Shown here: positions 16,241 to 64,000 of the stretch, piece by piece
Position numbering within the stretch: position 1 is the first letter of the stretch
Layout: every line of letters starts with the position of its first letter
DNA from: Haliotis rufescens
Taxonomy: Eukaryota
Reading direction: 5' to 3'
Length of the DNA stretch: 64,000 nucleotides
Assembly: GCF_023055435.1 (NCBI RefSeq)
Contig: NW_025963850.1
Location: 1 to 64,000, forward strand
Notes under the pieces: model-generated
Databases searched by the model: none
What the model was told of the DNA's origin: nothing
What the model saw: only the letters and a program-made list of their open reading frames with translations
Made by a program: the position numbers and the translations under genes

Positions 16241-16504
16241 ATAGTAAAGTATAAATAGGTTCGTGGGGAACCCCATGCCATTTTGATTCATCCGGTATGG
16301 GTGTCAGCAGGCTTCTAGCTGTCGCTCTCCATGTTCCAGTGTTAAGAGGGGAGTGTTTGTAATTTTCTTTAATATTCAAAATCGGAAGATGCCTATTTTC
16401 ATACGAATGGACTATTGAAAAACATGCATTTCATTTGATTAAATATTATGGTTTCAAGAATAGTGTCAACTCGTAAGGGAGTTGAGAAAAAAAACCAATA
16501 CAAG

Positions 16505-16790
16505 GTTTGTGTAGTGCCGTCCACCCTTCCTTGTCCTCATCTGCAACACTTGCGCCACTCTTGATCACACGTGCGGCTACAGATTCATGTCCATTCTGAC
16601 AAATTATATATAGTGCCGTCCGTCCGTTCTCATTAAAAGCTGTAACACTAGCGCAACTCTTGATCACAAGTGCGGCTACTTATTAATGTCCATTCTGACA
16701 AATTATATGCACTGCCGTCCGTCCGTCCGTTCTCATTAACAGCTGTAACACTTGCGCCACTCTTGATCACAAGTGCGGCTACAGATTAGA
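16505..16790 (-). pseudogene. Degenerate inverted fragment (about 3 units) of the gene A-type ankyrin array
   Basis: The minus strand reads ...IKSCASVTAFNENGRTALYIICQNGHESVAARVIKSGASVADEDKEGWTALHK, the same 99-bp unit as 30590-33120. It has a 4-nt ggac slippage and a stop in the first unit. Confidence 0.85.
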
Positions 16791-19592: not shown

Positions 19593-19603
19593 GGGGATTC
19601 CCC
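19593..19603. promoter_or_regulatory. kB site upstream of DD4 exon 1, between DD4 and gene A
   Basis: GGGGATTCCCC within the near-palindrome gaaggggattccccttc. Confidence 0.65.
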
Positions 19604-21185: not shown

Positions 21186-24100
21186 ATGGATAGGGGGGAC
21201 AGAGAGGTGATAGCTCCGTACTTCACGGGGAAGAACAAGGCACTGAAGCTCACTGAAGTGTTGGAAATACTGGAGAACCCTGATGATACACGGGCTATAG
21301 TAACACCCCCTGCTCAACCCCATGGAGGAGACGGGTACTTGTACAGGGTGGAGGCAGACTCGGCGGAAGGTAGGTTAAAGAGTGCATGTCTTGAAGTTTT
21401 AACATTAATAAAAATGCATAATCTGATGAGTATTAATAAAGGGAGGATTAATAATGGAATAAGACAGTATTAATGAAACACTAAATTTGATTATTTATGT
21501 TGTGGGATGTGGTGTGATGGGGTCGTATGGGTGGGTATTGGGAGCAAGTAGCAGGTGTCAAATAGTCAAAGGAGCCACAGACCAGTGAAGATCCGGGGAA
21601 GAATTTATAGGTCTTCAGCAACACCTGTTTGCCGTAAAAGGTGACAATACTTGTAGTAAGAGGCGACTAACGGGATCGGGTGGTCAGGCTCACTGACTTG
21701 GTTGATGCATGTCGTCAATCCCAATTGCGTGTATCGAGGCTCATGATATCAATCACTGGAACAAAAACAAACACACAAAAGACGGAGTGGCATTTGGAAG
21801 GAGGGTAGTCATTGTTTCTAAAATAGTCCTGGGCTCGAATCTCAGATTTGTCTTTTATGTGATTCTAGGCTTGTAAACGTCGATGACCTATGAAGATCTA
21901 CGCCACTTTACGCCACTACTCCACTTTACCAAATGTTACTTTACTCATGCTTTAGCCTTCACAATGTAGAGATGAATAGCGACCTACTAGACCCACTGAT
22001 CCCTATGAACAATACAAATATAGTTGACTAAACGTTCACATACTAGTATGCTGTGATCGCGATCGTGATATCAGTTATATTTACACACACGTAAGGTTTA
22101 AATATAACCCGCTATTGACACAGTCAACACGTATATATGGAATGACAGCTCATCGCTCGCACTTCGTGGCAATGAGCCGGATCTTGCAAGGGAATATACG
22201 TACTCGTGTTACCTGTAATGAAAAAAACGTTCCCGACTGCAACTCGTAAATAGCACCCCGATCTGAGGCCATGCAACGCACTACCAAGCTCTTTGTATTG
22301 ATTCAGGTTGCAGATCAATGCACGTAGCTAGGCAGTGATAATGAAAACATTTTACGCTAAAAAGCATTGGCAGTTTCTCTTTCCAAACGCTACTTTTGAT
22401 GCAGAAAAACAAAACAACTAAAGAATTGCACTTAAAGAACATACGATGAAGTTGATTGTCAATGTATTGATTGGGCCGAAAGCTATGCAAATATTCACTA
22501 AGAAAGTTTGATTGCATGTGCGGTACTGATCAGGTAGCAGATGCACTATAAATCCCTTGTACATAATATTGTGGCAACATTATTTAACATTTTGTGATAT
22601 TTGTTACATTGTTTCATATTTACAAGTTTCAATTTATTCATAAATTAGAACGTGTTCTTGTCATCTTTGGTCTGAAGAAAGCCACCTTGAATTTAAATGT
22701 AAACTCACTTACAATTTGTGTCGACTTAGAACCTCTTAAATTTGGATTTAGACTGTTTGCCGTGAACAACGTTACATCCAGATTCGTCATTAGTTGACAC
22801 TGTCTATAACCTTCACATTGTGTCCTTAATAATAGTTCGTTATTGATCATTCTGTTTGATGGTGGACGTGGATGTAGGCTTGATTCTGTGTTTATATTAA
22901 ATTATGTTCATTGCAGCAGATACCAACTATAAACCAGGAAACATTGAATCAACTAACGCGAATTTTAGGGGGAAAACATGATCGAATCTGTATGTATATT
23001 ATATGAATTATTTTTATTGCAGCAGATCCCAAATATATAACTCAAATATATATCCCAAATATATAACCGAAACTAACACCTAACCGACCGAAATGACGTC
23101 TTGTAATCATTAAGTTAAGTTATTATTGCTCTACAGATTCCTGGGAAAATGACAACTACTACTTCAAGCACAATGGTTCTCGTGAACAGCCTAAACCTTC
23201 ACCCAAGGTTCTCAAGCAGGACTTCGTGGCTTATAAAAGTGATGGCACCACCACCGAGGCTTTTAAACGACAGGCATACAACTTGCTCGAGGGAGACGTG
23301 AAATATATATTAGTACACTACATTGGGAAATGCACAGTAGCATTATCCGATCCAAAATATGAGAAGCGTTTGAATACAGCCCTCCACCATGAATCCCAGA
23401 TAGTGAACAGTTACGCGATAATAGCTGGTTCTGGAGATGAAGATGGTGGAGATTGGGAGACCAGGGATATGGAATGTGATCATGATCGTGCAAATACTAA
23501 CTCTCCTACTTTCCTGGCTTCCTTAGATGAAGTTAGCTCAAGGAAAAGGACACATGACCCTGATATGGTAAATCGTGTGAAAACTCCTAAACGTTCAGAA
23601 AACGAACAAGTAATTGAAAACAATTTGATAGACATCATAACCACCGAAAGTGTTAGTCATCAACATGATGAAAGACCGACCAACCTCAAGTCACTCACCG
23701 AATGTTTGCTGAACAAACGTACTCATATCGTTATCGCAAGACGTGTGTTGAAGCAGGCAAAATACTGGGAGAAAAGCACCAGATTTCCTACCTTTGACAG
23801 TCCATGTTTATCATTAATCGCTGACATCGACTGTAAATGGAGAAATGACCTCACAGAAGTCAGTGACAGGTTGAAGTGGTCACGACTTAGCCCGGATGTT
23901 CTCGGCGAAGACCAGTGCAAGGATACGTATCACAGACTGGTATCTGCTGTCATAGTAGGTGCATATCACATGAAGACGGACATCACAGAGTTTGTTGACA
24001 CCCTCTATATGTACCCATCACATGTGATGGGTGACAACGCCTTAACAGATGACGACGATGGGACGGATCCTCAGATGTGCAAGGTGGGGCCCCACAACAT

Positions 24101-27100
24101 ACAGAGGAATCATCTCCTCGATCAAACAGCATGGCTTGGCGATGAGGTAATTTTTACGATTTCGTAGCTTATATTTTGCTCTTTATGTATTATATAATTT
24201 TATTCTGAAAATCCTTTCTAAAAGTTTAACATTACTTGGACAAATTAAAGGTACAAAATCGACCAGGACCATCTTCCTTCTCGGTCGTGGTCGGTAGGCC
24301 ATGTCAAATAATGATATCAGGAATAACATTATTAAAAATGAAAATTGTACAATATTGATAGATGATAAAAAGACCATTTGTTCCAATAGTTGAAATTGCT
24401 TACAGGCCAAATAACATTAACTCGCTCAATCGTTATTTGAGCAGTTCAGACAGGATATATGTTGCAATAATGTTTTTCTAAATTGCTGGTTGTAACACGT
24501 GACGAAGGGGTTTTGTATACAGGAAACTAAGGTTATAACGAACTCAAAGGGACTGCTAATTTTAGTTCGTTATAACCGTAGTTCGTTATAAGCATATATA
24601 TAGCATAACTACAGCAAATAGTCGGGACCAAAAAAGTAAGTTCGTTATATCCGTCAGTTCGTTATAAGCGTGTTCGTTATAACCGTACTTTAACCTCCAT
24701 TGCAGGTGATGAATGCATACATGCATGTCCTGAAGACCACGTGGAATAGGATCCACAGCCGCCACTGCGCTGTACTTGATTCCTTCCTTGTCAACCATTG
24801 GGAGAAAGACGAGTATGACGTGCACCCCTGCAAGGTTGGACGAGCATAGTCATGTACATTGTATAAAGTGATGAGTAAAGTACTGGTATTAGGTTTTCGT
24901 CCAAAGATGGAAATTAAAGAGACTTTTGAAGATCTTCGATTCGGTTATGGATCCTTGTTTAGCATCTACTTTAGGCTCTAAGAGATATGAGGTCGGTTTT
25001 GGAGACAGTTCATTGAAGATCTAGAGCAGCAGTTTTCCTTTTCCAAGAATATCATCACTGGACATATGTCAACATGCTATGTGCAGTAAACTACGGTTAT
25101 AACGAGGTTTAATGGCCGCTTTCAACAGTGTTCCAATTATTTCAGTGTGTCAGATTAATGTGGGAGGAAAGCAAGAAGTGATGCAGGTTTCAGACATTAA
25201 CCACTTTAGTTATTGAGTTTGAAATGTTCAATATCATAGCCATTTCAACATAAGTATCATACGCATGTATCCAAATCAGAGGGAAGTAATCGTATGGATA
25301 TGCTAATATCAGTAAACTTGATCAAATGGAAAAGAACTTATTGTAAATTATAATACAGTAATCTGTAGATAGACATACGTCTATGTGGTTAAAGAGCATC
25401 AAATGAACCTTGCTTGATCAGGGTAAAACATTCAAGACCATATTATTTTCCTTTTCACCAAAACCTTTACTGTAAATAAAAGCGACATAACCCTTTCCTC
25501 ATTCTAGCTTGTCCCCCATCTCAGTGGAGCTCCTTTTTTAATATAAATGTATGTGCTTCTTTCCTTTTTTGGAAACCAGGCGTTAGTCTGAAAAGCATTA
25601 AAATGTTTGGTTTGTATCAGTGACAAACACGATGCAATTCCATGTTTTGACTTTTGTACAATAATTATGTCTCTGTTTCTCGGGCGACCGGTTGACTTGT
25701 CTTTGCATGTGTTTGTGACAGGTGCCACCGGTGGACAGAATACGGTCACCTTTTGCGAACTGGTATTGTCACTATTTGCCAGTGATTTATTAGCACATGC
25801 TCGTGATATAGTCGGTATCATTCAAGGTGTTTGTTTTAATTATGGCAATGATTTTGCGGATTTATTTTATATTAGGAGGAACTTGGAACTTACACGTGGA
25901 TCCTGATGCCAGTGAACATGCCACTGAATCAACACTGGGTGCTTCTGGTCGCCAATGCCCAGGATGGAACAGTGGGCGTGGTCAACTCTAAGCCTGTCCT
26001 TGATGTAGGGGACAAACTTATACAACATTGGAGGTAATTTGAGGGCGTGGTCAGCTATATGTAGAGATAAACCTTTATCATCCAAAACTGATATCGCTTG
26101 GGTGAGATCAAGTGATATATATAGTTTAGATATTGCTGCAACATAATTGCATCACACTGTTTTGCAGACCATAGTGACGTCATTGGTTACCACGACGTCA
26201 CAAATGACATCACTAATGACTGCTACTGAAGCTGTTAGCAATACTTTTTACACTAAAGACACTGCGTATTACTGCTACAAACTGAAACAGCTGGCAGAAT
26301 GATGTTGGATGATAAATTAAAGCTCACCCTTGTGTCTTTTGATGTCAAATATATCAACACTCGTTGATATTTTTTACTCTAAAAGACACTCTAGTGAGAT
26401 TCTCTATGAACAACACTGTAAGTAGGTGGGCCGAACAGGTGATGTGGTCAACTCACAGCCTAAAATTGATGAAGACTACTGCGCTGACCAGAGCTGAGGT
26501 ACACACTGATGAATGTCTGCTACCGATTTTGAAACAAAAGCTGCAATCTGGCTCAGCTACAAACATGTATAGTTAATCAGTCCTAAATGTATAGCGCTAG
26601 GTTGTAGGTGGGTTTGAGACAGGGGAAACAAATAGAGGTCGTAAACTATATCCTATATCTATTTCAGAAAATATACACGCTGTTTGAGGAGAGGTGATGG
26701 GTCAGTGATCACATGGACAAAGACAGAATATCCAGTACTGAGTCAAAGTGATGGACATAGCTGTGGCGTGTTTGTGAATATGGTACGTGAGCTAGATAAG
26801 ATATATAAATCTTTCATTATTGAATAGTATCAATGATAAGAGCATATACAGCTAAACATGATGAATTGCTATAATTTATTATACAGTTTAAATTTCTCAA
26901 CATTTCCACTTTTTTCACTAAATCTTCTGCAATTCCACCCAGCATGGGAACTATATTACAAATGTCAATCGCATGAGCATGCTCTTGGGTACTTGCCATT
27001 CAAATGTGTCATTATCAAAACTGAATATTTCTAGTAGTATCTTAACATACCATATCAGTATTAATATACTGATCCGTTTCTACGATATGTGTTTACTTAA

Positions 27101-30100
27101 ATTTCCATAGTTCTAACAAGTTTTTTTATACAGTACGTTTGTATTAAAAACAAAAGCAAGAAGACAATGTGGACTTTTATTTTTAAATATAATATATTTC
27201 AATGTGTACAATGTATTCTGGCACTCTAAATCGACATTCAACGGGATCATGCTGTTGGAAAAAGGCTCTGAGTGAGTGAGTGAGTGAGCAAGCGAGCTTG
27301 GTTTCACGCCACCTTTAGCAATGTTCCAGCAATAGCGCGGTAGGGGACCCTAGAAATGGGCTTCAAACATTGTACCCGGGAATTGAACCCGGATCTTCGG
27401 CGTGATGAGTGAAAGCTTTGACCACTGGGCTACCCCACCCCACTGACCTGATATGAGACCGTATACCGTCAGTAACAGCCATTTAGGATTTTCATACACC
27501 AACTTCACATATTTCACAAGAATATTCTGGTACAGAAATCCGTTATTTGACACGGTTTTGTGTATTAATGAAATTAATTGTGATGTGCAAAGACATCAAT
27601 TTTTAAAACAACTACGTTCGTGACTTCATTACTAAAATTAATAGAGGAAAAAGGCTCACAACAGAGGTCATTGAACATAAAAGATGACGTCACGAACAAG
27701 AAACGCAACGCCAATAACGTCACATAGCAGTAGACCAGATAGAAGTCCATTGTTAGGGATAAGCGGACTGCTATCAAGTTACAGTTGACACCAGACTCCT
27801 GTTAACATAGGTCAGTTTTATTATAATTCTATCTTGTTTAAACGTTAACGTTTAGTGCTTTATTTATTCCATTGTTAACGTTTGTGTTTACATTAGAGCG
27901 TTGTATCGGAAACACGCCTTGCCCAATGTTTTTCTCTTTACCTAATATGACACCGTATACTGCCACTATAGACACCTTAGGGGTCAAACACTGAAGAACA
28001 GTGCTTTATTTTTTTGTCAATTATTCGTCACCAGTGGCTCTATATTGTTACAGGCAGCAGAAGCTGTACTATCGGAGGTGCCTCCTAGTGTCATGAGAAG
28101 CTGCCACACTGTCTGGTACAGGAAGTACATCTGGCGCAGGTTGCGAGAATATGCTGGTGAACATATTCCGCCTGATACTGACACACATAGTGAGTATAAG
28201 TATTGTTTTCCAAATATACCTCAAAACCTAAATACATACAAAAGACAAAAAACATTCCATATTCATGGTACACAATCAGAGTCGACCATGTCATTGGCAT
28301 GTGTTTATGAATCACTACCAAATAGTGTGTTCACGACAAGGTGAACATATCCTGCCAATAGCAATATATATCCCACAACAAAACTAGAATGTCCAAACCC
28401 ACGTACCACTGGGCGTACTTGTTATGTCAGAAAACTTTGTTATTATTCGTTTCCCGCTAAATCTAGCATTGTCGTACCACGTTTATGTACTGTAAGACGC
28501 AAGTTAGGGACAATTCATAAAGCGGTTCAGTTTATATGTTTGTTTAACGCCCCACTCAGCAATATTCCAGCTATATGACTGCGGACTGTAAATAATCGAG
28601 TCTGGACCAGACAATCCAGTGATTGATATCATGATCATCGATTCACGCAATCGGGATACGCTGTTATGCTTAACCAAGTCAGCGAGCCTGACCACCCGAT
28701 CCCGTTACAAGCATAGTCGCCTTTTACAGTCAAACATGGGAAGCTAATATTTGTTACATGTGTTGTGCTGAACTGAATATCAAGCATGTTGATGGTTAGG
28801 TTTTTAAGTAGTTCAATACTACTGAATAACTATATATTAGACAAATTGCATTAGAATGCTTAGAGACATTAACGTGAGTTATTAGATTGACACCCGCTGC
28901 TGGCTTGTTTCCAGCTATTCGAAAAACTAAAACCAGTAGCGAATCCACTGCTCCTGAATTAGCTGTATTACGCTCGGTCATTCGCCGGTCGGTCATCACC
29001 ACAACGTGGGTTTTCTGTATCAGTTCTGGTGTTGCTGACTTCACAGGCCTTCCAGGACGGGGGTCGTCTTCAAGGCACTCCCTGTTACACTCAAACTCTG
29101 CTGCCTAACTCGTTATGTTGACAGTGGGACATACTTCCCTAGTGCTGTATTCATATCTTCATGGATGGCTTTTGGCTTTGTTATATAAATCCTTTTTTTC
29201 TGCAATTCCACTTGACTGCACATTCCTAAAATTTGTCCATTTTCCAAAGGTCACAGACCTCTGCTTGTTTTGATTACTTTTGCGCAATTCCTTCTATCAG
29301 AGTCTCAGATATCAGTCAACCATCGTTGCTGATACATTGCTGAGAGAATATTGTCATTCACTCACTCACTTATTATTCACATGTTTTTAATGATGAAGTA
29401 ACGACTGGTATTATTTCCAATGTTGAAGTGAAATATTAAAGCAAGTACATCGTACATGTTACAGGTTGTATTGAAATGTTTGTAATATTTCTTGTTATTC
29501 AAGTACGAGTGAAGCCTGGCATACTGGAAAGTGTCCGGACCTCTATATTCGCAATGGGCAAAAACTTAATATTAATATTGCTATCACAGGATATTCAACA
29601 AATCCCGATTTGACGAAATATAACAATGTAGAGGGGTTGTATGTCGGTTATGATAAAGGAAGACAACTATTAAAATATGTTCCTAAATTCCGTGTTTTCA
29701 CTTGTACCATATGTTACCATGTTTCGCAAATTACCAATTGACTTGCCTTTGCATGTGTTTGTGATGTGTATCACCAGCAGGACAGGATATGTTCGCCTTT
29801 TCGTGGACACCTGATATTTGATAGGGATTAAAAAACACATGCTCATGAACGGTCATAGAGGATCATCAAATATATGTGAATTTTATATGTTGGCACATGG
29901 TGTTTATTGTGGTTGATACATAGATTTACAAAGAAAACAGCATGTACAAAAGCCAAAATCTCTTTAATGTCGATTCAAGTAGTACACATTGTAAGCGTTA
30001 AAATATATAATGTTTAAAAGTGTGTTTATTTCAAATATATTGCTAAATGATGAATTAACCTGTTTGGTTCTGTATTTGAAATATCGTTGTCCTTCTTGCA

Positions 30101-33100
30101 GTGCTTGAGTCTCCATGTGAAAAGCTGACAAATAATCCAGCGTCAACGAATGCCAGAGCGTTTGCGTATACAATAGTCAATATGTCGACCAGCATAGATG
30201 ATACGAGATACAGTTTGCATAAAGCAGCCAGCCTCGGTGATATAAGACGCATGCACTTGTTGATAGACCAGGGGGAGGATGTAGCAGGTACCGATGACCG
30301 AGGATGGACGCCTTTGCACTGTGCCTGTGAAAACGGTCACGTTACAGCTGTCTCTGATCTGGTTTCCAGGAGGACGGGCGACGTACAAAATAGAGCTCAA
30401 CTTACATTGTACAATCCTGTCTTAGGAACGGAGTATACGTATCTAGCAGGAGCATATCCACTCCACATTGCTTGTTTAAATGGACATGAGAATGTAGCGC
30501 ACATTTTGATCAATAGCGAGGCAAATGTTGACGACAAAAGTGAAAATGGAACAACAGCTCTTTTTCTTGCTTCTATTAACGGACATGAATCTGTAGCCGC
30601 ACTTCTGATCAAGAATGGTGCAAGTGTTACAGCTGAGGACGAGGGCGGATGGACGGCACTATATGTAGCTTGTCAGAATGGACATGAATCTGTAGCCGCA
30701 CTTCTGATCAAGAATGGTGCAAGTGTTACAGCTGAGGACAAGGACGGATGGACGGCACTATATGTAGCTTGTCAGAATGGACATGAATCTGTAGCCGCAC
30801 TTCTGATCAAGAGTGGTGCAAGAGTTACAGCTAAGGAAAAGGACGGATGGACGGCACTACATGTTGCTTGTCAGAATGGAGATGAATCTGTAGCCGCACT
30901 TATGATCAAGAATGGTGCAAGTGTTACAGCTGAGGAGAAGAACGGATTGACGGCACTACATCTAGCTTGCCAGAATGGACATGAATCTGTAGCCGCACTT
31001 CTGATCAAGAATGGTGCAAGTGTTACAGCTGAGGAGAAGGACCGATGGACGGCACTACATGTAGCTTGTCAGAATGGACATGAATCTGTAGCCGCACTTC
31101 TGATCAAGAATGGTGCAAGTGTTACAGCTGAGGAGAAGGACGGATGGACGGCACTACATCTAGCTTGTCAGAATGGAGATGAATCTGTAGCCGCACTTCT
31201 GATCAAGAATGGTGCAAGTGTTACAGCTGAGGAGAAGGACGGATCGACGGCACTACATCTAGCTTGTCAGAATGGACATGAATCTGTAGCCGCACTTCTG
31301 ATCAAGAATGGTGCAAGTGTTACAGCTGAGGACAAGGACGGATGGACGGCACTATATGTAGCTTGTCAGAATGGACATGAATCTGTAGCCGCACTTCTGG
31401 TCAATAGTGGTGCAAGTGTTACAGCTGAGGACAAGGACGGATGGACGGCACTATATGTAGCTTGTCATAATGGACATGAATCTGTAGCCGCACTTCTGAT
31501 CAAGAATGGTGCAAGTGTTACAGCTGAGGAGAAGAACGGATCGACGGCACTACATCTAGCTTGCGAGAATGGACATGAATCTGTAGCCGCACTTCTGATC
31601 AAGAATGGTGCAAGTGTTACAGCTGAGGACAAGGACCGATGGACGGCACTACATGTAGCTTGTCAGAATGGACATGAATCTGTAGCCGCACTTCTGATCA
31701 AGAGTGGTGCAAGTGTTACAGCTGAACACAAAGACGGACGAACGGCATTACATCAAGCTTGTCAGGATGGGCATGAATCTGTAGCCGCACTTCTGATCAA
31801 GAATGGTGCAAGTGTTACAGTTGAGGACGAGGACGGATGGACGGCACTATATGTAGCTTGTCAGAATGGACATGAATCTGTAGCCGCACTTCTGATCAAG
31901 AATGGTGCAAGTGTTACAGCTGAGGACAAGGACGGATGGACGGCACTACATGTAGCTTGTCAGAATGGACATGAATCTGTAGCCGCACTTTTGGTCAATA
32001 GTGGTGCAAGTGTTACAGCTGAAGACAAGTACGGATGGACGGCACTACATCGAGCTTGTCAGGACGGACATGAATCTGTAGCCGCACTTCTGATCAAGAA
32101 TGGTGCAAGTGTTACAGCTGAGGACAAGGACCGATGGACGGCACTATATGTAGCTTGTCAGAATGGACATGAATCTGTAGCCGCACTTCTGATCAAGAAT
32201 GGTGCAAGTGTTACAGCTGAGGAGAAGGACGGATGGACGACACTACATGTAGCTTGTCAGAATGGACATGAATCGGTAGCCGCACTTCTGATCAAGAGTG
32301 GTGCAAGTGTTACAGCTGAACACAAAGACGGACGAACGGCATTACATCAAGCTTGTCAGAATGGAGATGAATCTGTAGCCGCACTTCTGATCAAGAATGG
32401 TGCAAGTGTTACAGCTGAGGAGAAGGACGGATCGACGGCACTACATCTAGCTTGTCAGAATGGACATGAATCTGTAGCCGCACTTCTGATCAAGAATGGT
32501 GCAAGTGTTACAGCTGAGGACAAGGACGGATGGACGGCACTATATGTAGCTTGTCAGAATGGACATGAATCTGTAGCCGCACTTCTGGTCAATAGTGGTG
32601 CAAGTGTTACAGCTGAAGACAAGGACGGATGGACGGCACTACATCGAGCTTGTCAGGACGGACATGAATTTGTAGCCGCACTTCTGATCAAGAATGGTGC
32701 AAGTGTTACAGCTGAACACAAAGACGGATGGACGGCATTACATCGAGCTTGTCAGAATGGACATGAATCTGTAGCCGCACTTATGATCAAGAATGGTGCA
32801 AGTGTTACAACTGAGGACAAGGACGGATGGACGGCACTACATGTAGCTTGTCAGAATGGACATGAATCTGTAGCCGCACTTCTGATCAAGAGTGGCGCTA
32901 GTGTTACAGCTGAGGACGAGGACGGATGGACGGCACTACATCTAGCTTGTCAGAATGGACATGAATCTGTAGCCGCACTTCTGATCAAGAGTGGCGCTAG
33001 TGTTACAGCTGAGGACGAGGACGGATGGACGGCACTAGATCTAGCTTGTTTGAATGGGAATGAATCTGTAGCCGCACTTCTGGTCAAGAATTGTGCAAGT

Positions 33101-33139
33101 ATTACAGCTGAGGACAAGGACGGATGGAATAAAGAGTAA
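21186..33139 (+). CDS. Gene A: CG-1-like + Ulp1/SENP-type C48 peptidase + about 29 ankyrin repeats (1589 aa, 7 exons)
   Basis: Exons 21186-21369, 23137-24146, 24706-24834, 25876-26033, 26668-26782, 28054-28189 and 30102-33139. All GT-AG, phases 1,0,0,2,0,1; 4770 nt without an internal stop. C48 motifs WLGDE|VMNAYM, ILMPVN..NQHWVLL (His 25933), VVNS and QSDGHSCGVF (Cys 26762). N-terminus PAQPHGGDGYLY..DSWENDNYYF..FKRQAYNL..YILVHY resembles CG-1. The ANK exon is the 1012-aa ORF. Confidence 0.8.
24518..24695. mobile_element. Tc1/pogo-like MITE remnant in gene A intron 2
   Basis: Begins tacagg..gttataacgaact and has repeated inverted ttcgttataa(c/g) motifs. Ends just before the exon 3 acceptor. 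Confidence 0.5.
27269..27442 (-). mobile_element. tRNA-derived SINE (family 1)
   Basis: Reverse-complement copy with (GAGT)n tail. Confidence 0.8.
28520..28740 (-). mobile_element. SINE-like repeat (family 3)
   Basis: Reverse complement of the 9665-9880 type. Confidence 0.7.
28940..29245 (-). mobile_element. Mariner transposase N-terminal remnant in gene A intron 6
   Basis: Frameshifted translation MDKF*...PKAIHEDMNTALG...AAEFECNRECLEDDPRPGRPVKSATPELIQKTHVVVMTDRRMT, the mariner HTH / EDDPRSGRP / DRR motifs. Confidence 0.75.
30590..33126 (+). repeat. Coding minisatellite: about 25 near-identical 99-bp ankyrin units
   Basis: Unit ...gaatctgtagccgcacttctgatcaagaatggtgcaagtgttacagctgagga.aaggacggatggacggcacta.at.tagcttgtcagaatggacat. 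Confidence 0.95.
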
Positions 33140-33189
33140 ATAATAGCCAACTTTAGTACTACTATTACAGTCTGAAGTACGTGTAACAG

Positions 33190-33330
33190 ATGTCGCGTCT
33201 CCTTGGGCAAGTGACTTTGTTCGAATTGTCCTTTTTTCCACCCAGCAGTGAGCGGGTACCCGGTAGGATGAGATGGCAATGTGGTTGTTAACCTTCTAGC
33301 GCCTAACAGGCAGCTTTGTTTGTATACTCT
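33190..33330 (+). repeat. CORE-SINE-like fragment in the 3' region of gene A
   Basis: tccttgggcaagtgacttt...ccacccagcagtga.cgggtacc. Confidence 0.45.
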
Positions 33331-34589
33331 CCATTGAGCTGAGAATGATTTTTGGGTGAACACTTTTCAATGTCTAAGCTTAGAGTATGCTTGTGCATGG
33401 AGAACAGTGCCATTCAAATAACGTGGATTTTATGTCCGCTTTCGGGTTTGATTTTTATTTGTTGCAAGGTCATAGGAGTTGCCTACCATGTCAGTTTTCG
33501 CAACTGTCCTTGTTTCATGGACAGAGGTTCATATAAACCATGAAACGTTTACTCAAATACATGTCTGATTTGTATTACTGTCCAATGATATTTAAAATGC
33601 TTTGAATAATAAAAAGAAATATTCAGAGAATGTTATTGGTGCCTTTCAGCTAAATTACAAAATGTTATTGAGTTACTTGTGTCTAATACCTGAACATGAC
33701 CTACTTTCAGTTATGTTATCAATGTCAAATATTGAGTTATAGATTCAGTGCCCAAGGGACGCAACTCTGCACAGCGAATCGCGGCGCATCCGTGCCCCCC
33801 GAGTTATAGATTCATGATTGAAATCATTCTTATGGCACCCAATAATTGCTTTTATCCTATGAGTCATAACTGGTTTTGTAAAACTCACAATCCAAGTGCA
33901 TACCTTTAGAAAAACAATACCATGTTGAACATTTATTCTTTTTTGGATTTTTTAAATAAAACTTTAAATGTTTATACGATTCTGTTAAATCATTTCATCT
34001 TCTGGGGAGAAGAGGTGGCCTAGTGGTTAAAGTGTCCGTTCGTTCTGGGAGTTTGATTCCCCACATTGGTACATTGTGTGAAACTCAAGGCTGGAATACT
34101 AAAAATAAGATTGTGTTCTTTAATCCGATTGGTTGAAAAACATGATTTACATCAGTTTGTCTGACTGATAACTGAACTTACTTAAATTAAATTTAAAATG
34201 AATAAGTTACCAAGACTAGAACACGCGTACGCCAGCAGACAAAATATCCGGCCCGTGAAGAGAATTAGAATTAGGTCTTCAGCAAACAATGCCTGCTCAT
34301 AGAGTCGCAAGCTCCGACGTTCATACAGTTTGGCCCTACACTCTATGAAGGTTCATACTCCAATGAACTCGCACAAAGTGAAGATCAATTCTTAATTGAA
34401 TGCATTGAATTTCATTTCCAAAATATAAACCACATAGTGACCAAGAATTACATCCATCGGGCACTCACATTAAAAAAAGGAAGCCAAATTCTTGGGAATA
34501 AGTTTTGAAGACCATCTTAATTTCTAGCCATATGTTAAAAATCTTAGCAAATGGCTGAAGGAACTGGATTTATCAGGTCGGGGAAAACC

Positions 34590-34675
34590 CCCAACTGGTG
34601 ACAATGAACCCAACTGGTGACAATGAACCCAACTGGTGACAATGAACCCAACTGGTGACCATGAACCCAACTGGT
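34590..34675 (+). repeat. 19-bp tandem repeat, about 4.5 copies
   Basis: cccaactggtgacaatgaa. Confidence 0.9.
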
Positions 34676-35149
34676 AGAATAAACTGGTCCTGTGTGGCTA
34701 CAAAAACCTTGCGGTGTTTTGTCCGTGCGTTGTCTGTACTACTTGGCGCATGATGGTGCGTATAAAATTCATTATGAAAACTTCTTTCATTCATCGATTC
34801 TTATAATATTACCCCGTTTGTTGCGCAGGTTATTGTGAACCCGAGTACCTCTTCGCCATTTGGACGGTTCATTCGCGTTACGCCGACTTTCAGAAAAGAT
34901 TATTCGCGTTACGCGGTTTTTCTTTGATGTGTGCGTGTTATGTTAACACACGAGGTTGTTACAAGCAAGCAATGAATGGTGTTTTTGGATGGTGTTCACG
35001 ACACATTCTAACAGTAGAAACAACAGATTTATGATGCATTTTGTGTCGTTTATTCCACACATTATATAGTATCAAAAGCAGCGACATGACAAATTTCAAT
35101 TTGGTACAACGAACAGAACATGATTTACATGAATTATTACATTTTTTTA

Positions 35150-35895
35150 ACTTAATTAGAATGGCTGATGCAACATCGGCACAGTGGACGATGTCGATTT
35201 CTTGCCTCTCCAGCCTCATCTTCAAATTGGCGATCTTGCGGTCGACTTCTGAGTATTTCTTCTTCTTGGGAGGTCTCTTCTGAACTGCTTCGTACTGCGC
35301 TCTGAATTTCCGAGGACTTCTGCTCTTTGGAAAGGAAGGTAATCATCTCGAAAATGTTGGGATGTGCCTTTCACGTGATCTTCAGTCGACTGTGCCATCC
35401 CTCCAGGTAGTTGTTTGTACGTGGCCCATCATTGTTGAAGTGGTTCCACTGGTTGATGTGGAGATCGCACTCGATCCACTTGCTGGTCATGTAGTCTGCA
35501 AGTCTTTGACATCTTTCATCGTCTAGAACGCGCTCCATTAGGTCAAGGAAGTAGTCTTCAACCTTAAGATAAAAATGTAATCCTGTCAGTTTCACACATT
35601 AACATGCATATTGAATATATTACACATTAACATGTATATTACGTATATCAAGTTAATAGAGTCTAATCTAACGGTCTGGTTACTACTTACATTGCCAACA
35701 GGAATGAGTGGCATTATTGCACACTGCTTGACGAACTTTGTAATCTCTGGTCTGTCAGTATAGTCTTTCTGCATGTTGCACTGTTGGGTCTTCCGCCATA
35801 CACACTGGGCAAAGTGGAAGAAGCATCCCTTCCATGTGGCACGAGGAAACCGCGATATGGCAGCATTCCTGGCAGCGACTTCGAAGTCCATCTGA
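35150..35895 (-). mobile_element. Mutator-like (MULE) transposase C-terminal remnant with an intron; disrupted
   Basis: MDFEVAARNAAISRFPRATWKGCFFHFAQCVWRK (DFE, CxFH), intron at about 35691-35564, then VEDYF...WNHFNNDGPRTNNYLEGWHSRLK*..HPNIFEMI (RTNNxxEGWH). Has a stop and a frameshift. Confidence 0.85.
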
Positions 35896-37300
35896 TGAAA
35901 ATAAATTAAAATTTATTATGATTTTTAAAGTTTATTTTGACCCCAAATGTCTAAAGGTCGGCGTAACGTGAAGACACCATTTGGACACATTCTGTGCTTT
36001 AAATCAGTCAAAAACACTAAATTGAAAGTCAAAAATTACCTGAAATGTACTTTGTCAACCACTCTCTCCGTCCACCATGCTTCCTACTCTGACCCGCCAC
36101 CTGCAGTCCAGGCAGTCAGGTAACGCCCAATTCGGGCCTTGGCGTCAGTGATCAATGGAAATTTTTTGAAATAGTTCGCGCTGCATTGCTAAAAGTGGCA
36201 ATAAGTGTAGGCAATTCATAGTCTTTGTGCTGTATCATAATGTTTTTATGGACATTTAACTGTTGAATATACATGTGTATGTATTACAAATAAATTTCGT
36301 TGTTATTTATGAAAAGAAGTATAAAATATTGTTATGTTGGTAAAATTTGTTTCAGGATGTTAAAGTAAAAAAATCCACAAAGAGGAATCAATGGCAGTGG
36401 GTGGGCTTTTCTGACTCTTTGCGATCTTCTGGCGTAATGAAGAGTTTCTTCACTGTGGGTCTTCCACCCTTTTCTAGAAGATTCTCCTTAATCATTATTT
36501 CTCTGAAATAATTTCGGAAATAAATGTCACTATTTTCCTAATAAACACAAAAAATAATCTGTGTATGTGTGTGTGTGCGTGTGCGTGTGCGTGCGTGCGT
36601 CAGAGTCAGAGAAAATGGCGTCGTGCCACTGCTATACATCTGGATCTAACACGTGATTTTGTCCAGGCCTGTCAGGTGGGGTGTGCAAGGGCTTGCCTCT
36701 AAATGCTTGCTTTTTCTAAGCCAAGATCTCCACCCTGCTATCTCCGGCGACAGGGAATTGTCAGTAGCTCATCACCAACTGGCATCAGTATGTTGGTTTT
36801 CATCTGTTATACAAAATTATTGATTATAGAAGCCTACTTGGAGATCAGAGGATCTGATGCAAGTGATCCCCATCAGATGGCCACACCGGGGTATCAATGA
36901 GTCCCAAAGGTATTTCACATGTTGTGATATACTATAAATTTTACAAACTTTTACAATCAATTTAAAACACATTATGTAGGTTTAATGAACCGCAAATATG
37001 CATATATTAATGTTTTCATTTTCTTCCAGCTTAACAAACGCGTTCCAATTAACAATGAAACGATTCATTTAATGAAACCCACACATCTTTCGCAAACTCA
37101 GGCTGCACCAATTTCAACAACCTCGCATGTTAGTACCCAAACTCCTGAACCGCTTCCAACACTGTATGGTCAACTTCAAACCCCAAACATCTACTTCTAT
37201 CACTTACCCCGAGTCAAGAACTCCCACGGTTGAAACCACAACTGACATCACAAAAAGGTCCAACAAAAGACGTAAACAAAAACAAAGCAGTCATAACCAA

Positions 37301-37501
37301 ACTATTTGTCCTATTTGTGACAGTTTATATGGGTGCACTGTGGACAATAATGCCAAGTGGATTGGTTGTGACTAAAAGGAAACCCTTTGCAATTATTGGG
37401 TGCATTGGGAATGCATCGGGATTTACGTCAGGAAAGTGGCTGATTTACAAAACATCACCTATCAATGCCCAGAGCATAACAAAATTGAAAGGTGTAAATA
37501 A
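37301..37501 (+). pseudogene. PHD-finger exon with an in-frame stop (probably a transposon accessory gene)
   Basis: ICPICDSLYGCTVDNNAKWIGCD*KETLCNYWVHWECIGIYVRKVADLQNITYQCPEH: C4-H-C2-H spacing of the PHD type. Confidence 0.7.
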
Positions 37502-38128: not shown

Positions 38129-38290
38129 GTGAGTGAGAATGGTTTTGCGTCGCTTTTAACAATAATCCAGCAATATCTCGTCGGGGAACGCCAGAAATGG
38201 GCTTCACACATTGTACCCATGTGGGGAATCGAACTGGGGCTTCGGCGTGGCGAGCGAACGCTTTAACCACTACGCTATCCCACTGACCCC
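38129..38290 (-). mobile_element. tRNA-derived SINE (family 1)
   Basis: Reverse-complement copy: ggttcgattccccacatgggtacaatgtgtgaagcccatttctgg. Confidence 0.8.
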
Positions 38291-57644: not shown

Positions 57645-60600
57645 ATGGCGTCCCATTTGAAACCACCCGAGCCTTACCTTACAGGGAGAACGTCAGCCCT
57701 TAAAGTGGAGGCGATTGTTAACATTCTGAAGAGTCCAGATGAGAGCAAGACCATCCAGACTGCCCCCGCCACACCCCAGGGAGGGGAGGTGTACCTCTAT
57801 AAGATAACCTCGGGAATGAGAGAAGGTGAGGCAGTTGTGTTCAGGCTTAATATTACCATGAGTCAGGGATTACTACATATTAACAATGTTAATATTTAAT
57901 GGAAAGCTGATATTATTTATTACACAATTTGAATTCATTGGGGATGTTAAGCACACATGACCAATGTCCTCAAAGCCACATTCATATACATGTACGTTAT
58001 TAGTAATAGTCTGCTTGACGTCGGGGTCACCCTGCCCTGGTATCAGCTTCCTTGTACAGCCCTGTGATAACCGGTTTTTTGTTTGCTAATATTGTTGACA
58101 AGTGATTGTCGTGCACAAAGTGACTACATGAATTAAAAATATTTGTCTGTATCATTGTTAAAACGACTTCTTTTGCAATATTTTCTATCTATGTTTTTCT
58201 TTTCACTCTTTCCAACCCCCTTTACAACAATTGTGTACTTAAATAATGAACATTGTTTGATGTCAACTTGTAAAAAATCCATTGTTGGATTAATCAATAT
58301 GGGCTAAACAAGAATCAAGTATCGTGTTGCATCTCAGGTAAGGAAAAAAGGACATGGTATTTATCATCACAACCTCAAATACAACATGTTTATGCATGAC
58401 CTAACAGCTGATTTGGCATTAAGGTGGGTTGATTTTAGAGTTATGTTACACTATTGACTGTTCACAGTTTTATTAATTAATCAACATCACAGGTGACACA
58501 CTAACACATACAGCTTTTTGAGGGATAGTTCATCTTCAGGATTACAACATTGTTTGCAGTGTTATGATGTTAATTTCTATTTGCAGATATCTGGAAGGAT
58601 GACAAATATCACTTCCGAAGTGATGGAACCCGGAAGCAGCCTGGCTCAAGTCCAGTCATAGTGAAGCAGTACCACAAGGCTTACACCGAGGACAAGACGA
58701 CAACAAGGGCCTTTGTCAGAGAAGCTTCGTATCTGTACAACCACCCTCTGAAACACGTTCTAGTGCAATATATCGGGGACCACACACAAGCACAGCCTTT
58801 TTCTCAACGAAAGAAGCGTGGTCAACAGACACTTCATTCCCCAGGTGACAGTAAATGTAGGAAAGTAGAATCAACTGGTGGAGCTGTGCAGTCGGGGGTC
58901 ATGGAGAACACTAACTCCAACCTGGACCCTGAAGATCATTCATCACCGACAGAATTGGAAGACAATGTTAAATCAAACACTATTCTAGGTGTAACACTGA
59001 ACGAAGCAAAGGTGTCAGAGACTGAAACAAAGAATGATCACGACACAAATCAAAAACGCAGCAGGACAGGTGATCATAGAGGTGATGATGACATTGATTA
59101 TTTGGGTACAACGTCAGGCTCCCCTGTCAAGAAAGCCCGTTGGCAGCCTCAACTTGAAAATGACAACACAATTGTAACCTGTGTCACAAACACACACTAT
59201 GCTTATCTGTACACATTTCTAGAAGATGTAGAAAGGAATCGGGATGTGATAAGGGTCGTGCGACAAGTCCTAGCATTATCTAGGTTCTGGAACAAGGACT
59301 GTACCAACAAAGGCAATCCGTGCTTGTCACTCATTGAAGAGGTCGACAAGAACTGGAATCTAGATGCAATTAAAGCAAGGAACTGGGTTAAATGTTCTGT
59401 AAATACTGACGTGCTGAGCTTGAACCAAGACAAGTCAGTTTACATAAAGCTCATCGCAGCAGTACTTGTTGGAGCATGCCATACCAGGACTGAAGTACAG
59501 GACTTTGTGAAAACACTGAAGGATCCTCCTTCACACCTGCAGCATGTACAAGAGGACGTCCCCCTGTCACGTGACTGTACATACACAGTTGGCTGCTACA
59601 CCATCAGAGGAAATGTTCTGTCTCGCCTGGAAACCAACGAGTGGCTGACAGATGAAGTAAGTAGTCCACCTGCAATATTTACACAATCACACAAACTACA
59701 TGCCTAGTTAACCATCCAAGAAAATCATTTCATAGAGCATGGGAGGCTTTCGATTTCATCAAATGATGTTAGTATTAGATATAAACTGGGGGCGTGAGGG
59801 TGGTGAGTTGTTCAGTCACCTAATACTCATTGATAGTGCCTTGAGGTAGGCGAGCTAGAGCTTGAGTTTGGTTAAACGCCTCTTTTTGACAGTAGTGTCA
59901 TGGTGCGTTGGATTAAATTATGAAGAAAGTAATGCACATCTTTGACGTTAACCACTTTGTTGATTCCCATGGTGAATCTGCATAGCGAAATGCGGCGCCT
60001 TGGACCACTGAGACCCCATCTTCAGATTAATACAGCAACTTTTGGCGGTTTCTACTTTTTACACCAGTATTAGTTAACTATCAATTCATATAATGGTGCT
60101 AATTATCAACTCATTGCCATGCATCTCGATTCTGCAATGATGGCACTACTCACCTGCAATGGGCATTGTTCACAAAATCTAGTACATCACCAGTCAAATT
60201 GTCAGTCATTGCTATCAGCCGAGATATTCTCTTCATGATGAATATGTGATGTGCAGCGGATCCTGCTTTGATTTGAAATTACAAGCGTTCCTTTTGAAGC
60301 AAACGCATTGGGCGATTAAACAGTATAATAAACATTCTAATAAATGAACTCTTTCCTGTCCAGATCATGGACACATACCTGCACCTCCTGGAAGGGGGAG
60401 TGGTGTTCCCGTGTAGGCTTCCACTGTCTGGTGCTGCCTACAGAGACAATCCTACTGTGGGAGGCAGGACAGTACACAGACAGAATAAGGGGGAAAGATG
60501 TGAGTGACGTGAGATTTTTATATTTCTTATAATTCTGTCATTCCGAGTGTACCATTGCATGTCCACCCTACCATGAACATGGGCAAGACTCAAAAGATAT

Positions 60601-63600
60601 TTTGCAGTAATTGTATATTTTTTGTGATAACATATGATTCGTCTATGCCATGATTGCGTATTCAGTATGCTAGAAGTTGTCACTTGCAATTGTGCGCACG
60701 AAGCGACCATATGCTGCAATGGGTTTCAATTGAGTCAAAGCCAGTAACCCCATTGATCATAATGCTATTCGTTTTCAATATGCAGTTACAAAAGCAGATA
60801 TTGCACATGAACATATTCGTCTTGCTACATATTATTTTATGAATTGAAAATCTGGTTGTCAGAGAGGGGTCTTTAGAATTTCTTAGTTCCAAGTTCATGA
60901 TACCAATTCACTATTATCTCTGTTACTGCATCATATCCATCTTATGTGAAGCACGTGTTTCTGGATATATTGATCGTACACCGGAAAGGCATTTGTTGTG
61001 AACTTTCAGGAAAATTTGACAAACTACACGTGGATCTTAATGCCAGTGAACATGCCACGTAATCAACATTGGGTGCTACTGGTGGCTAATGTCAAGGATG
61101 GAACAGTGGGCGTGGTTAATTCTAAACCCTCCTTAATTGTGGAGGACAAGGTTGTACAACACTGGAGGTAGGTGGACAGAACAGTGGGCGTGGTCAATTC
61201 TAAACCCGCCTTATATGTAGAACACCCATTTGTACAACACTAGAGGTAGATACAAAAAAAAGAGGACGTGTGGCTGCACATTATAAATGTTAAAACCAAG
61301 CTATCCAATTTGAAATGTTGAAATGTTGATTTCTCAAAAACAAACATGAATGTAAATAAGATCCATCGAAAAATGTTCGATACACCCACATTTGTAGCTT
61401 TTACTTTTGGGTAGAAGATATAGAACAACTTGTTCACAGGGTTACCCAGTTCCCCAAATGGGTACACTGTGTGAATGATTTAAACGCCATAAATACAGTT
61501 ATGTCACTCATTCATTTAAACCATAACATCTGTATTTGCTAACATAAAACCTAATTATGGACAAAGCAGGAGAGAACATCAGAAATGCCAGGACCGGATA
61601 TTTTAGGCACTGCTGTATTTACCTTCTGTTCTACCTTTACTTTAGCACCAGTCCACATGAGTTGAAGACTTTATTGCCATCGAGTAATATACATGTATTC
61701 CTCAGGCTCTTTGTAAATCACTTGAAATCTACGTCTAAGGAAAGGAGCAAGTCATGGATGAAGAAACAGTACCCAGTGATAGAACAGTCTGATGGACACA
61801 GCTGTGGGATATTCGTTCTGATGGTAGGTTGGTTTGAAGCTATGTTTTTGATATGAAAGGCAACATGTGTCTCAATAACCACGTATGAAAGATACCTTTT
61901 CATTTCTAACTTTCATATTCTCAGGCTGCTGATGCAATTTTGGCGGAGAAGTCTCCAGGCATCATGAGGAACTGTCACGTTGAGAAAAACAGGCTGTATG
62001 TGCTTCAGAGGATACTACAGTATGCCAAGGACAAGGGAGATATGCAAGGTGGAGGAAATCACATGATGGCAGTTGGTGGACAGGGTAATGTCACAAACGA
62101 AATTCAAACTGTAACGCTGGAGACAAGAGATGTACTGGAAAATAGCTGTACAATGACAACAGAACAAGGAGGTCCAACTATTCATGAAGAGGATGGACAT
62201 GAAACACATGAAGGACCCGACTGTGCTATGGCCAGTGATGAAAGTATGCATTCTGGAGATCATTACTATGTTTCGTAATTGTAAGTCGTTACGCAAGGTA
62301 TTATATTTTAGATCTACATGTGCAATGTTGTACACTGCTTTCTAACAACCGCTATTTGTTTTCACAGATACAGAGGACTATCCATGTTTGGATCAGCACC
62401 TGTTGCATAAGCAGGAGAGGGCGTGCTTGTTAGTGGTTGCTTTGGCGGAGAATAACCTGGAGGAGAGGATGCTATGGGCAGGGTCTGACACAGGGACTCG
62501 CGTCGAAAGAGAAACCTACAAAAAATATATTGTTTGGGCAGTTAAGGCTTTTGACATCAATGAAGAAGAATACACTGAAAATATGATGAAACCTATTTTA
62601 TCCCAATTGGCGGGATGCTGTCTCCATCATGAAGCAGGCTCATATAGAATAAGAAATCATAAAGTAGCAATAAAGCTAAGAGAAATACTGCTACGTGATG
62701 TTAGGCAGTTGGTTGAAAGGATGGATCTCGAGTTCATATATCGTTATGTGACATTTAGAGATGATCCAACTGAAGAGGAACAACTAAATGTGTCTTTCAA
62801 CCTCGAATTGAAACATGATGATCTGCATATTGTAGCGAAGAGGTTTGCTACAGCTTTACACGGCAGAAAGTTTGCCTTTGTGTGCATGCATTCCCTATTC
62901 CAGGTAGAGACATTTGTTGATATGGTTTGGGAGAAATTGTTGCATAATATGAACAAGGACAGTTCTGTACTGTTGAAAGTATTGTCAAATAATGACATTG
63001 TACATGGATATTCCTTTCTGTTTTGGGCGAGCATCACAGACAACTCACATTTGTTGAGGAGAGCATTGTTCAGTGTTCATTTGAATGCAGAGAACAGAAA
63101 GGAAGCTTTGTTTGGAAGTTGCTTTGGGAATAGTTTAGCCAACTTCGATTACTTGTTTTCCAATAAAAACTGGAAGTTGGATAAGTTGTGGATGACACTA
63201 CCCAAACTCCCAAGACCTCTCATCATTAAACTGCAGTTGGCAGTTGCAGATGATCTGAGAGTAAAGTTTGGTAAATGTTCACTTTTGGACATTGCCTGTG
63301 TGGGTGGGTTGTCTGCAGTGGCTTCCAGATTGTCACATTTGATGAAGACGAGCAAGAAGAAAAACAAGTCAAGAAAGAATACATATGTACATGTTGCATC
63401 CTTGTGCCTAAAGGGCAAAGATACCATGGATACAATTACAAAAATTGGAAAACTGAATGTCAATATAAAAGGCCCTGAAGGATCAACACCTTTACATTAC
63501 GCATGTGCAGTTGGAAATGTTAGCATTGTAAGCTATCTGTTACAGGAAGTAGTGGACATTGGTGAGCAAAACAAGAAGGGTGAAACTGGGCTTCATTTGG

Positions 63601-64000
63601 CATGTATATATGGAAATGCAGAAGTTGTTACAATGTTATTACAGAACAAGGGAATAATTCATGTGAAAGATAATGCTGGCCTCACACCTCTACATCGTGC
63701 AGCCTGGCAGGGACATCGGGTGGTTGTGGAGGTGTTATTACAGAACAAGACCAATGTGGATGAGAAACGTAATGATGGCAGCACACCTCTACATCATGCA
63801 GCCTACCAGGGACATCGGGAGATTGTGGAGTTGTTATTACAGAACAAGGCAAATGTGGATGAGAAAGATAAGGAAGGCAGCACACCTCTACATGATGCAG
63901 CCTACCAGGGACATAGGGAGGTTGTGGAGGTGTTATTACAGAACAAGGCAAATGTGGATGAGAAAGATAAGGAAGGCAGCACACCTCTACATCTTGCAGC
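57645..64000 (+). CDS. Gene B: paralog of gene A (CG-1-like + C48 peptidase + helical region + ankyrin repeats); 1-nt frameshift in exon 3; runs off the window end
   Basis: Exons 57645-57825, 58587-59656, 60364-60499 (136 nt, one base too many), 61010-61167, 61706-61823, 61925 to an uncertain phase-1 donor (about 62084 or 62243), and 62368 to beyond 64000 (open; missed by the ORF track because there is no stop). Motifs WLTDE|IMDTYL, NQHWVLL, VVNS and QSDGHSCGIF. ANK units GSTPLHxAAYQGHREVVEVLLQNKANVDEKDKE. Confidence 0.72.

Follow-up and report, generated by a model that had tools for sequence, protein, structure and literature searches.

Gene A and its protein

The window analysed here, a stretch of 64,000 nucleotides from Haliotis rufescens (contig NW_025963850.1, positions 1 to 64,000 of the forward strand, assembly GCF_023055435.1), holds gene A, a seven-exon gene at 21186-33139 whose product carries, in this order, a CG-1-like domain, a Ulp1/SENP-type C48 protease and a homogenised ankyrin array. 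All introns of the model are GT-AG, and the frame runs through 1589 residues to a sole stop at the end. A first-pass annotation made from the letters alone had described the array; it did not recognise that this array forms the C-terminal end of a protease gene, which lacks an NLR-type nucleoside triphosphatase (NTPase) and belongs to a Haliotis family. Proteins are given P numbers here, P0001 being the window protein and P0005 the H. rufescens protein XP_048247918.1. The features of gene A, all on the plus strand, are:

21186..21369, plus strand: exon 1, first half of the CG-1-like domain, ATG at 21186 (GT-AG model; 92% identical to XP_048247918.1 residues 1-61)
23137..24146, plus strand: exon 2, remaining CG-1-like domain, disordered acidic/basic linker, helical subdomain and C48 start (model; joints in three RNA-type runs)
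24706..24834, plus strand: exon 3, C48 protease (model, XP_048247918.1 match, joints)
25876..26033, plus strand: exon 4, C48 protease with His461 (25933-25935) and Asn478 (25984-25986) (motifs, P0008-SENP1 alignment, joints)
26668..26782, plus strand: exon 5, C48 protease with Gln520 (26744-26746) and Cys526 (26762-26764) (motifs, P0008-SENP1 alignment, joints)
28054..28189, plus strand: exon 6, final protease helices (model, XP_048247918.1 match, joints)
30102..30577, plus strand: 5' part of exon 7, coding for the N-terminal cap region plus some four diverged ankyrin repeats (frame, model, X17 contig)
30578..33128, plus strand: homogenised ankyrin array, 25.7 x 99 bp (Tandem Repeats Finder, unit alignment, Pfam Ank)
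31162..31428, plus strand: first copy of an exact 267-nt block (exact repeat search)
32350..32616, plus strand: second copy of the 267-nt block (exact repeat search)
33113..33139, plus strand: truncated last repeat DKDGWNKE and stop (frame; P0005 ends likewise)

The coding blocks upstream of the array were first revealed by comparison of the window with itself, in which they matched a second gene at 57.6-64 kb (gene B). The array lies in the last exon, exon 7, which has a good splice acceptor at 30102. Contigs of the sequencing runs X15, X17 and X19, which are guessed to be RNA and give neither level nor strand, show splicing: aligned to 21100-30690, they bridge all six introns in X15 and X17 and five of the six in X19, against none in the DNA run X2. 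The exon 1/2 joint (21367-23135) is present in X15, X17 and X19 and absent from X2, exon 6 is joined upstream in three runs (26781-28053) and downstream in X15 and X17 (28189-30102), and a single 884-nt X17 contig spans exon 4 to 30574. These intron-bridging joints, together with a contig running from the catalytic exons into the ankyrin exon, indicate that gene A is transcribed and that the array is attached to the upstream domains.

Three additions to the model were rejected. A small exon at 25722-25761 has the wrong phase and is skipped by the RNA joints, the 28189-30102 joint passes over a candidate exon near 29500-29660, and a splice donor at the array end, in the style of P0002, finds no fitting downstream exon within the window. 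A second copy of exon 2, 87-88% identical to 23135-23975, occurs in DNA and in spliced RNA-type contigs. It is probably a paralog of the P0003/P0004 type, and its presence in spliced contigs suggests that this paralog is expressed too.

In P0005, Pfam places CG-1 at residues 16-124 (E 2.2e-6, above cut-off), Peptidase_C48 at 394-547 (PF02902, 42.0 bits against a cut-off of 20.7, E 1.3e-10) and ankyrins. The window protease differs from that of P0005 at 5 of 166 residues; exon 4 of the window on its own scores 17.1 for PF02902, under the cut-off. The protease begins within exon 2 at WLGDEV (Trp394 at 24132-24134). His461, Gln520 and Cys526 are intact in gene A, and Asn478 sits where SENP has Asp; Asn serves in other cysteine proteases. 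Of 21 family proteins examined, from subfamilies that share about 35% identity, 18 keep the His, Gln and Cys motifs, with Asn as third triad residue in 16 of the 18, Asp in one and Ser in one. The three proteins without the motifs are P0013 and P0032, which end early, and P0026. This last protein (H. asinina) has no ankyrin units by the unit pattern and both catalytic His and Cys replaced, a pseudo-protease; with P0013 (H. rubra) it represents a conserved ankyrin-free paralog.

Another ankyrin-free paralog is P0008, whose best solved-structure matches are SENP1 (2iyc) and Ulp1 (1euv), with E-values of 3.5e-4 to 3.7e-3 among nine hits to E 1, in an alignment that covers HW, the Asp position and Q-x5-C. 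The WLxDEV, HW and Q-x5-C motifs of Ulp1/SENP proteases (MEROPS C48, clan CE) are matched in this alignment. The family differs from those proteases in the replacement of the catalytic Asp by Asn, in the fusion to CG-1-like and ankyrin parts and in the distance of the similarity (E ~1e-4). By its profile, gene A is a predicted C48 family member with an Asn-variant triad, and not a CAMTA protein. The ESM Atlas gave no usable match for the protease region, and a fold search with the predicted model of paralog P0007 was uninformative on the protease, with ankyrin structures alone among the matches listed and DARPin (designed ankyrin repeat protein) fusions as the best ones.

Pfam CG-1 is above cut-off in P0003, P0004, P0005 and P0015; CG-1 is a sequence-specific DNA-binding fold of the WRKY-GCM1 clan (PMC9252788). 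No NLR-type NTPase (NACHT, NB-ARC or nSTAND) was found by Pfam in P0002-P0005, P0010, P0014-P0016 or P0023, and the 1589 residues of gene A leave no room for a STAND NTPase. Because the NTPase is missing, gene A is not an NLR.

The ankyrin array and its variation

Tandem Repeats Finder reports a 99-bp period at 30581-33128 (25.7 copies, 92% matches, 0% indels), enclosed as a whole by an open frame at 30080-33139, and Pfam finds 28 ankyrin stretches in P0001. Across 25 units there is no stop or frameshift. The first-pass annotation had also counted about 25 units. The consensus unit is DKDGWTALHVACQNGHESVAALLIKNGASVTAE, numbered in the standard way D1 K2 D3 G4 W5 T6 A7 L8 H9 V10 A11 C12 Q13 N14 G15 H16 ... 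E33. In an alignment of the 25 full units the mean pairwise difference is 7.5 of 99 nt, and unit identity is 0.94 to the nearest neighbour and 0.83-0.84 in the pairwise mean. Judged from the 92% DNA match and these identities rather than with T-reks, the array falls within the fungal definition of high internal conservation (HIC), that is, repeats >85% identical over >=100 residues (PMC4986451), and the likeness to fungal NLR repeats that had been proposed is borne out.

Variation is found chiefly at positions 1, 2, 3, 5, 9, 10, 13 and 26 and is highest at 10, 1, 5, 9, 26 and 3. Each variable position holds 2-5 residues, and at most of these positions the consensus residue dominates. The residue lists of the first-pass annotation agree with the alignment position by position, and two of its terms need tempering. 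Its "hypervariable" is too strong for variation with a highest positional entropy of 1.66 bits, W at position 5 in 19 of 25 units and Q at position 13 in 22 of 25. Its "invariant scaffold" is likewise overstated: no variation is seen at 12 of the 33 positions, and of the 34 distinct variants that change the amino acid, 20 fall outside positions 2, 3, 5, 10, 13 and 33.

The array also records its own growth. Two copies of an exact 267-nt block lie 12 units apart and form the longest exact internal repeat, a length reached by 0 of 2000 unit-order shuffles in one register and 9 of 2000 in the other; they correspond to the duplicated NGDES..EEKDGSTALHL..GWTALYV..LVNSG block noted earlier. A second block noted then, KSG..EHKDGRTALHQ, does occur twice and is about one unit long, its copies differing by one nucleotide. 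Four-gamete incompatibility is seen in 31 of 153 informative site pairs among units. In addition, there is a higher-order period of six units (594 bp), at which the mean difference falls to 5.63 from 7.50 nt; among 15 offsets tested, 1 of 5000 shuffles was as low in one register and none in the other. Together, the period, the exact duplicate and the four-gamete result indicate that the array grew by duplication of blocks of about six units, followed by local exchange. Unequal crossover or conversion, as first proposed, is thereby upheld, and the idea of blocks shuffled into random order gives way to a regular period. No canonical C-cap follows the last, truncated repeat.

To locate the variation relative to the binding face, the position sets of the ANK-N5C library were used as an outside definition: binding positions 2, 3, 5, 10, 13 and 33, and tolerant non-binding positions 12, 14, 16, 22, 25, 26 and 30 (PMC4308713). 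The sets follow consensus numbering, not surface area, and position 30 was dropped for entropy. In the window, 14 of the 34 amino-acid-changing variants lie at the six binding positions (p about 0.003 against the site share) and 6 at the tolerant set (14 against 6, p 0.025), which supports the earlier statement that substitutions concentrate on the hairpin and inner helix. With the classical DARPin variable positions 2, 3, 5, 13, 14 and 33, clustering is weaker (12 of 33, p 0.035) than with sets in which 10 or 1 is counted. The position set of the first-pass annotation (19 of 33) was defined post hoc and does not serve as a test.

The same bias recurs in all nine arrays measured, in which mean entropy is 1.23-1.80 bits at positions 3, 5, 10 and 13 and 0.11-0.49 bits at 12, 14, 16, 22, 25 and 26. 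These arrays represent four scaffolds, ESVAALLIKNGAS, REVVEVLLQNNAN, IDIVRLLIEKGAD and VEIVKLLVENGLD; in the giant members of the family, loop-length changes inflate the entropy of position 3. In P0023, a small set of 8 diverged units gives similar entropies for the two position classes (2.46 against 2.16 bits).

An abalone family, and the rest of the window

The relatives of gene A point to abalones. A query with exon 2 returned three proteins among 2896 candidates, all from Haliotis, and the N-terminal 612 residues of P0005 returned 7 among 6412, six of them from Haliotis. When 1.84 billion representatives were searched without filters, there were 15 hits. The five with both C48 and ankyrins, P0003 and four proteins of 3,458-4,108 residues, are all from Haliotis; among 9 of the 15 that were looked up, 7 are from Haliotis (rufescens, cracherodii, rubra) and one is a Capitella multi-CG-1 protein. 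Named relatives with the full CG-1-like/C48/ankyrin architecture come from Haliotis only. RefSeq members of the family are XP_048247918.1, XP_048247931.1, XP_048244964.1, XP_071097256.1, XP_071097650.1, XP_048249888.1 and XP_071090384.1. Their labels, "uncharacterized" or "ankyrin-3-like", are automatic, and the domain content excludes ankyrin-3 orthology. No description of this architecture was found in the literature reached, which held few subscription papers. The C48 and variable ankyrin proteins thus look like an undescribed abalone protease family.

Several copies are present per genome, clustered on the same contigs, and array length among relatives ranges from 5 to 31 units. At least four different homogenised scaffolds occur across the family. 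The four lie in separate clades of the protease tree, save two types of giant members that share one. Among these giants (P0014, P0015, P0016 and P0023; 3,458-4,108 residues), P0015, P0016 and P0023 have 14-18 homogenised units in a block, with hairpin loops that vary in length, embedded in long diverged ankyrin runs.

The comparison with P0005, which has the exon-level architecture and the DKDGWNKE ending of gene A, isolates the behaviour of the array. Over 726 non-repeat residues the two proteins are 95.0% identical. Their arrays (25 units in the window, 19 in P0005) have no identical whole unit in common and share 2 types of positions 1-14, out of 21 and 15 respectively, and the alignment of unit order is no better than that of 30 of 300 shuffles. 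For two arrays of subfamily B, to which gene B belongs, order is likewise no better than in 61 of 300 shuffles. Another H. rufescens protein, P0002, has 5 array units; it matches P0005 without a difference across the 467 residues that precede the exon 6/7 border and then differs at 11 of 146, after which the arrays are unrelated and the C-termini differ. Either the gene was duplicated recently and an exon exchanged, or the two proteins use alternative last exons. Between close relatives, therefore, the array turns over far faster than the remaining protein.

The remaining features of the window are:

57646..64000, running off the window, plus strand: gene B, a paralog with the CG-1-like and C48 exon set of gene A, an insert of about 300 residues and an ankyrin array (tblastn, frames)
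16500..16790, minus strand: decayed stretch with the repeat type of gene A, roughly 2.5 units long and interrupted by stops and small indels (Tandem Repeats Finder, self-comparison)
1636-1956, 7672-7860, 9111-9395, 42076-42288, 44241-44561, 48040-48324 and 52175-52455, minus strand: seven death-domain exon copies

Gene B is about 37% identical to gene A, with a matching exon set, and its array is built on a different scaffold (Tandem Repeats Finder row 63634-64000). Its exon 3 (60364-60499) is out of frame by one base near a G run at about 60392, where the relatives P0009 and P0010 read through; the break is either an assembly error or the mark of a pseudogene. The insert of about 300 residues sits between protease and ankyrins in subfamily B and belongs to no Pfam family. 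A search with it returned 6 Haliotis hits among 2380 candidates, and the ESM Atlas gave sub-0.9 leads only, among them a weak winged-helix lead (0.87). On these few hits and this weak lead, its identification as a STAND receptor remnant was not confirmed. A 138-bp palindromic element at 57454-57591, possibly a miniature inverted-repeat transposable element, lies directly upstream of the gene B start codon.

The death-domain exons fall in two segmentally duplicated clusters (1-12.4 kb and 40-51 kb, 70-85% DNA identity), and some copies are shortened or frameshifted. Pfam Death is above cut-off for 44241-44636 and below it for 1633-2046. These exons may be small stand-alone genes interleaved with the protease-ankyrin genes. 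At 34590-34675, 1.4 kb beyond the end of gene A, lies a 19-bp minisatellite of 4.5 copies; two copies of a 230-bp repeat flank an assembly gap at 16086-16240.

A proposed re-targetable protease and its alternatives

Our preferred reading, to which we give about an even chance, is that gene A encodes a re-targetable, ankyrin-guided deconjugating protease, an intracellular sensor and enzyme in one chain that probably serves defence. The product would be intracellular, probably nuclear, and the ankyrin solenoid would be the targeting part that picks the target. Crossover and conversion among the 99-bp units would hold the stacking scaffold uniform and bring the few residue types used at the hairpin and inner helix into new combinations, with the result that the binding groove would change much faster than the remaining protein. 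The C48 domain would be the acting part, stripping SUMO or another ubiquitin-like tag from the array-bound target or cutting the target itself, and the CG-1-like domain may hold the protein on DNA or chromatin. The likely pressure would be conflict with intracellular pathogens or selfish elements, and the seven death-domain exon copies that share the window with gene A were counted in favour of this reading. Published work places an enrichment of ankyrin genes on a non-syntenic, duplication-rich and structurally variable abalone chromosome, with a proposed defence role cited (PMC12627906), and reports an unnamed ankyrin transcript raised in resilient animals (PMC5405107). The passages in question do not name the C48-ankyrin family, and the window is not assigned to that chromosome.

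The closest parallel is with the HIC ankyrin repeats of fungal NLRs (Podospora Pa_3_8560 and Pa_2_8180; Chaetomium gi116208038 with 21 repeats; PMC4986451), which like gene A have near-identical C-terminal units, variation at the hairpin and inner helix, unit recombination and an N-terminal enzymatic effector. Gene A is by contrast an animal gene in which no NACHT, NB-ARC or other NTPase was found, and its putative effector is C48 with a CG-1-like domain. In Podospora, repeat-number polymorphism and positive selection have been demonstrated (PMC4986451); gene A is known from one allele. The array also resembles DARPins and the ANK-N5C library in its constant scaffold with variable positions 2, 3, 5, 10, 13 and 33 (PMC4308713). 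It is unlike them in being natural, in its dominant consensus, in varying at positions 1, 9, 16 and 24-26 as well, and in having no C-cap.

A stronger version of the same idea would make these proteins an anticipatory, NTPase-free receptor-enzyme system of abalones, natural counterparts of DARPin-enzyme fusions directed against intracellular pathogens. The protease would be re-aimed by unit recombination within and between loci and by swapping entire ankyrin exons, as cassettes, at the exon 6/7 border, perhaps somatically in haemocytes. We consider this version doubtful.

A number of observations weigh against the re-targetable protease. The ratio of non-synonymous to synonymous change (dN/dS), which the first-pass annotation had proposed as a check, is 0.75-1.13 for the whole unit, from counts of distinct variants in one allele (27 transitions and 20 transversions observed). 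For the six face positions against the unit-wide dS it is 1.82 (p 0.086), 2.17 (p 0.034) and 2.59 (p 0.012) at a transition bias of 1, 2 and 4, and is thus significant only at an assumed bias of at least 2. Silent variants are enriched on the same six codons (5 of 13 against an expected share of 0.10-0.13, p 0.006-0.018), which brings the ratio within those codons below 1. In natural ankyrins at large, too, variability is highest at the binding positions (PMC4308713), so fold constraint alone yields part of the face bias. Consensus residues prevail at most variable positions of the array, and the nine arrays do not count as independent cases. Family members may be decaying copies, given that P0008, whose protease is intact, has no recorded ankyrin domain and that gene B is out of frame. 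Outside the repeats, the predicted model of P0007 is weak, with a mean predicted local distance difference test (pLDDT) score of 58. The silent clustering fits old face variants retained with linked silent changes, a HKDGRTALHQACQN segment being common to the window and P0005; it also fits higher local mutation or conversion from diverged donors. The variation is biased to the face, and positive selection on it is borderline.

Several of these points would be expected if the array were a coding minisatellite in a functional protease gene, turning over neutrally while the fold purges buried changes, and serving as a generic scaffold or spacer. This explanation is possible, if on balance unlikely. 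It accommodates a whole-unit dN/dS near 1 and the silent enrichment on face codons, the regular six-unit period, which is typical of satellite growth, the degenerate last unit without a C-cap, and the range of 5 to 31 units among relatives. It does not readily explain why exposed, tolerant non-binding positions are far more uniform than binding ones in nine of nine arrays, when the two classes are close in the small sample of diverged P0023 repeats. Homogenised blocks arose, moreover, on four different scaffolds, and 25 units remain without stop or frameshift.

CAMTA proteins combine CG-1, TIG, ankyrin and IQ motifs, and gene A could act as a nuclear regulator of that kind, with CG-1 on DNA, the ankyrins on fixed host partners and the protease deSUMOylating chromatin factors, its variation being lineage-specific regulatory tuning. 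We think this improbable. The sequence-specific DNA binding of CG-1 (PMC9252788), its above-threshold matches in four members and the N-terminal position of CG-1 alongside ankyrins speak for it. The family is nevertheless unlike CAMTA in its protease and in its 5-31 homogenised repeats, with far more repeats in the members of 3,500-4,100 residues, and Pfam found neither TIG nor IQ in the members scanned. Fixed partners should also keep the binding face constant, whereas gene A and the 95%-identical P0005 have no whole unit in common.

It is very unlikely that gene A is the cargo of an active or recent DNA transposon (Mutator- or Ginger-like), with the array either captured as a passenger or acting as an anti-silencing module. 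Ginger1 and Mutator elements (Mutator/Kaonashi) do have divergent Ulp1 domains beside a WRKY-GCM1-clan domain (PMC2836005), the clan of CG-1 includes Mutator transposase DNA-binding domains (PMC1702500), and both these elements and gene A are multi-copy. In gene A, however, the members scanned with Pfam contain no transposase family, and no framing inverted repeat was found between 15000-21185 and 33140-40000 apart from two short hits on a single 60-nt interspersed element. The copies cluster on the same contigs, and the gene has six spliced introns with an exon set matched in a 37%-identical paralog. Even if gene A is not cargo, its N-terminal CG-1 and protease parts may well stem from a transposon, given the Ulp1 domains of Ginger and Mutator elements (PMC2836005).

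That the array is a collapsed or expanded repeat of the assembly is scarcely credible: near-identical tandem units do assemble poorly and the window has the gap at 16086-16240, but the longest exact internal repeat is 267 nt, the frame is open across 25 units with 0% indels, the 19-unit array of P0005 starts and ends as that of gene A does, and contigs of an unrelated DNA run are about 5,900-deep on a single unit against 60-80 on unique sequence (summed depth, not copy number). The exact unit count may be off.

Animals seldom have highly conserved ankyrin, TPR and WD repeats (0.8% of such proteins), which are known mainly as diversifying sensors of fungal NLRs (PMC4986451). The homogenised-repeat regime arose several times in one mollusc family, where it is wired to a SUMO-protease-like enzyme without an NTPase switch. 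Were the array neutral, an undescribed abalone protease family would still have come to light under "ankyrin-3-like" labels. If selection and activity hold true, gene A would represent a new layout for variable recognition in invertebrates and a natural model of targeted deSUMOylation. It would also offer a candidate, typable by PCR, for the proposed defence role of the abalone ankyrin expansions and for disease-resilience breeding.

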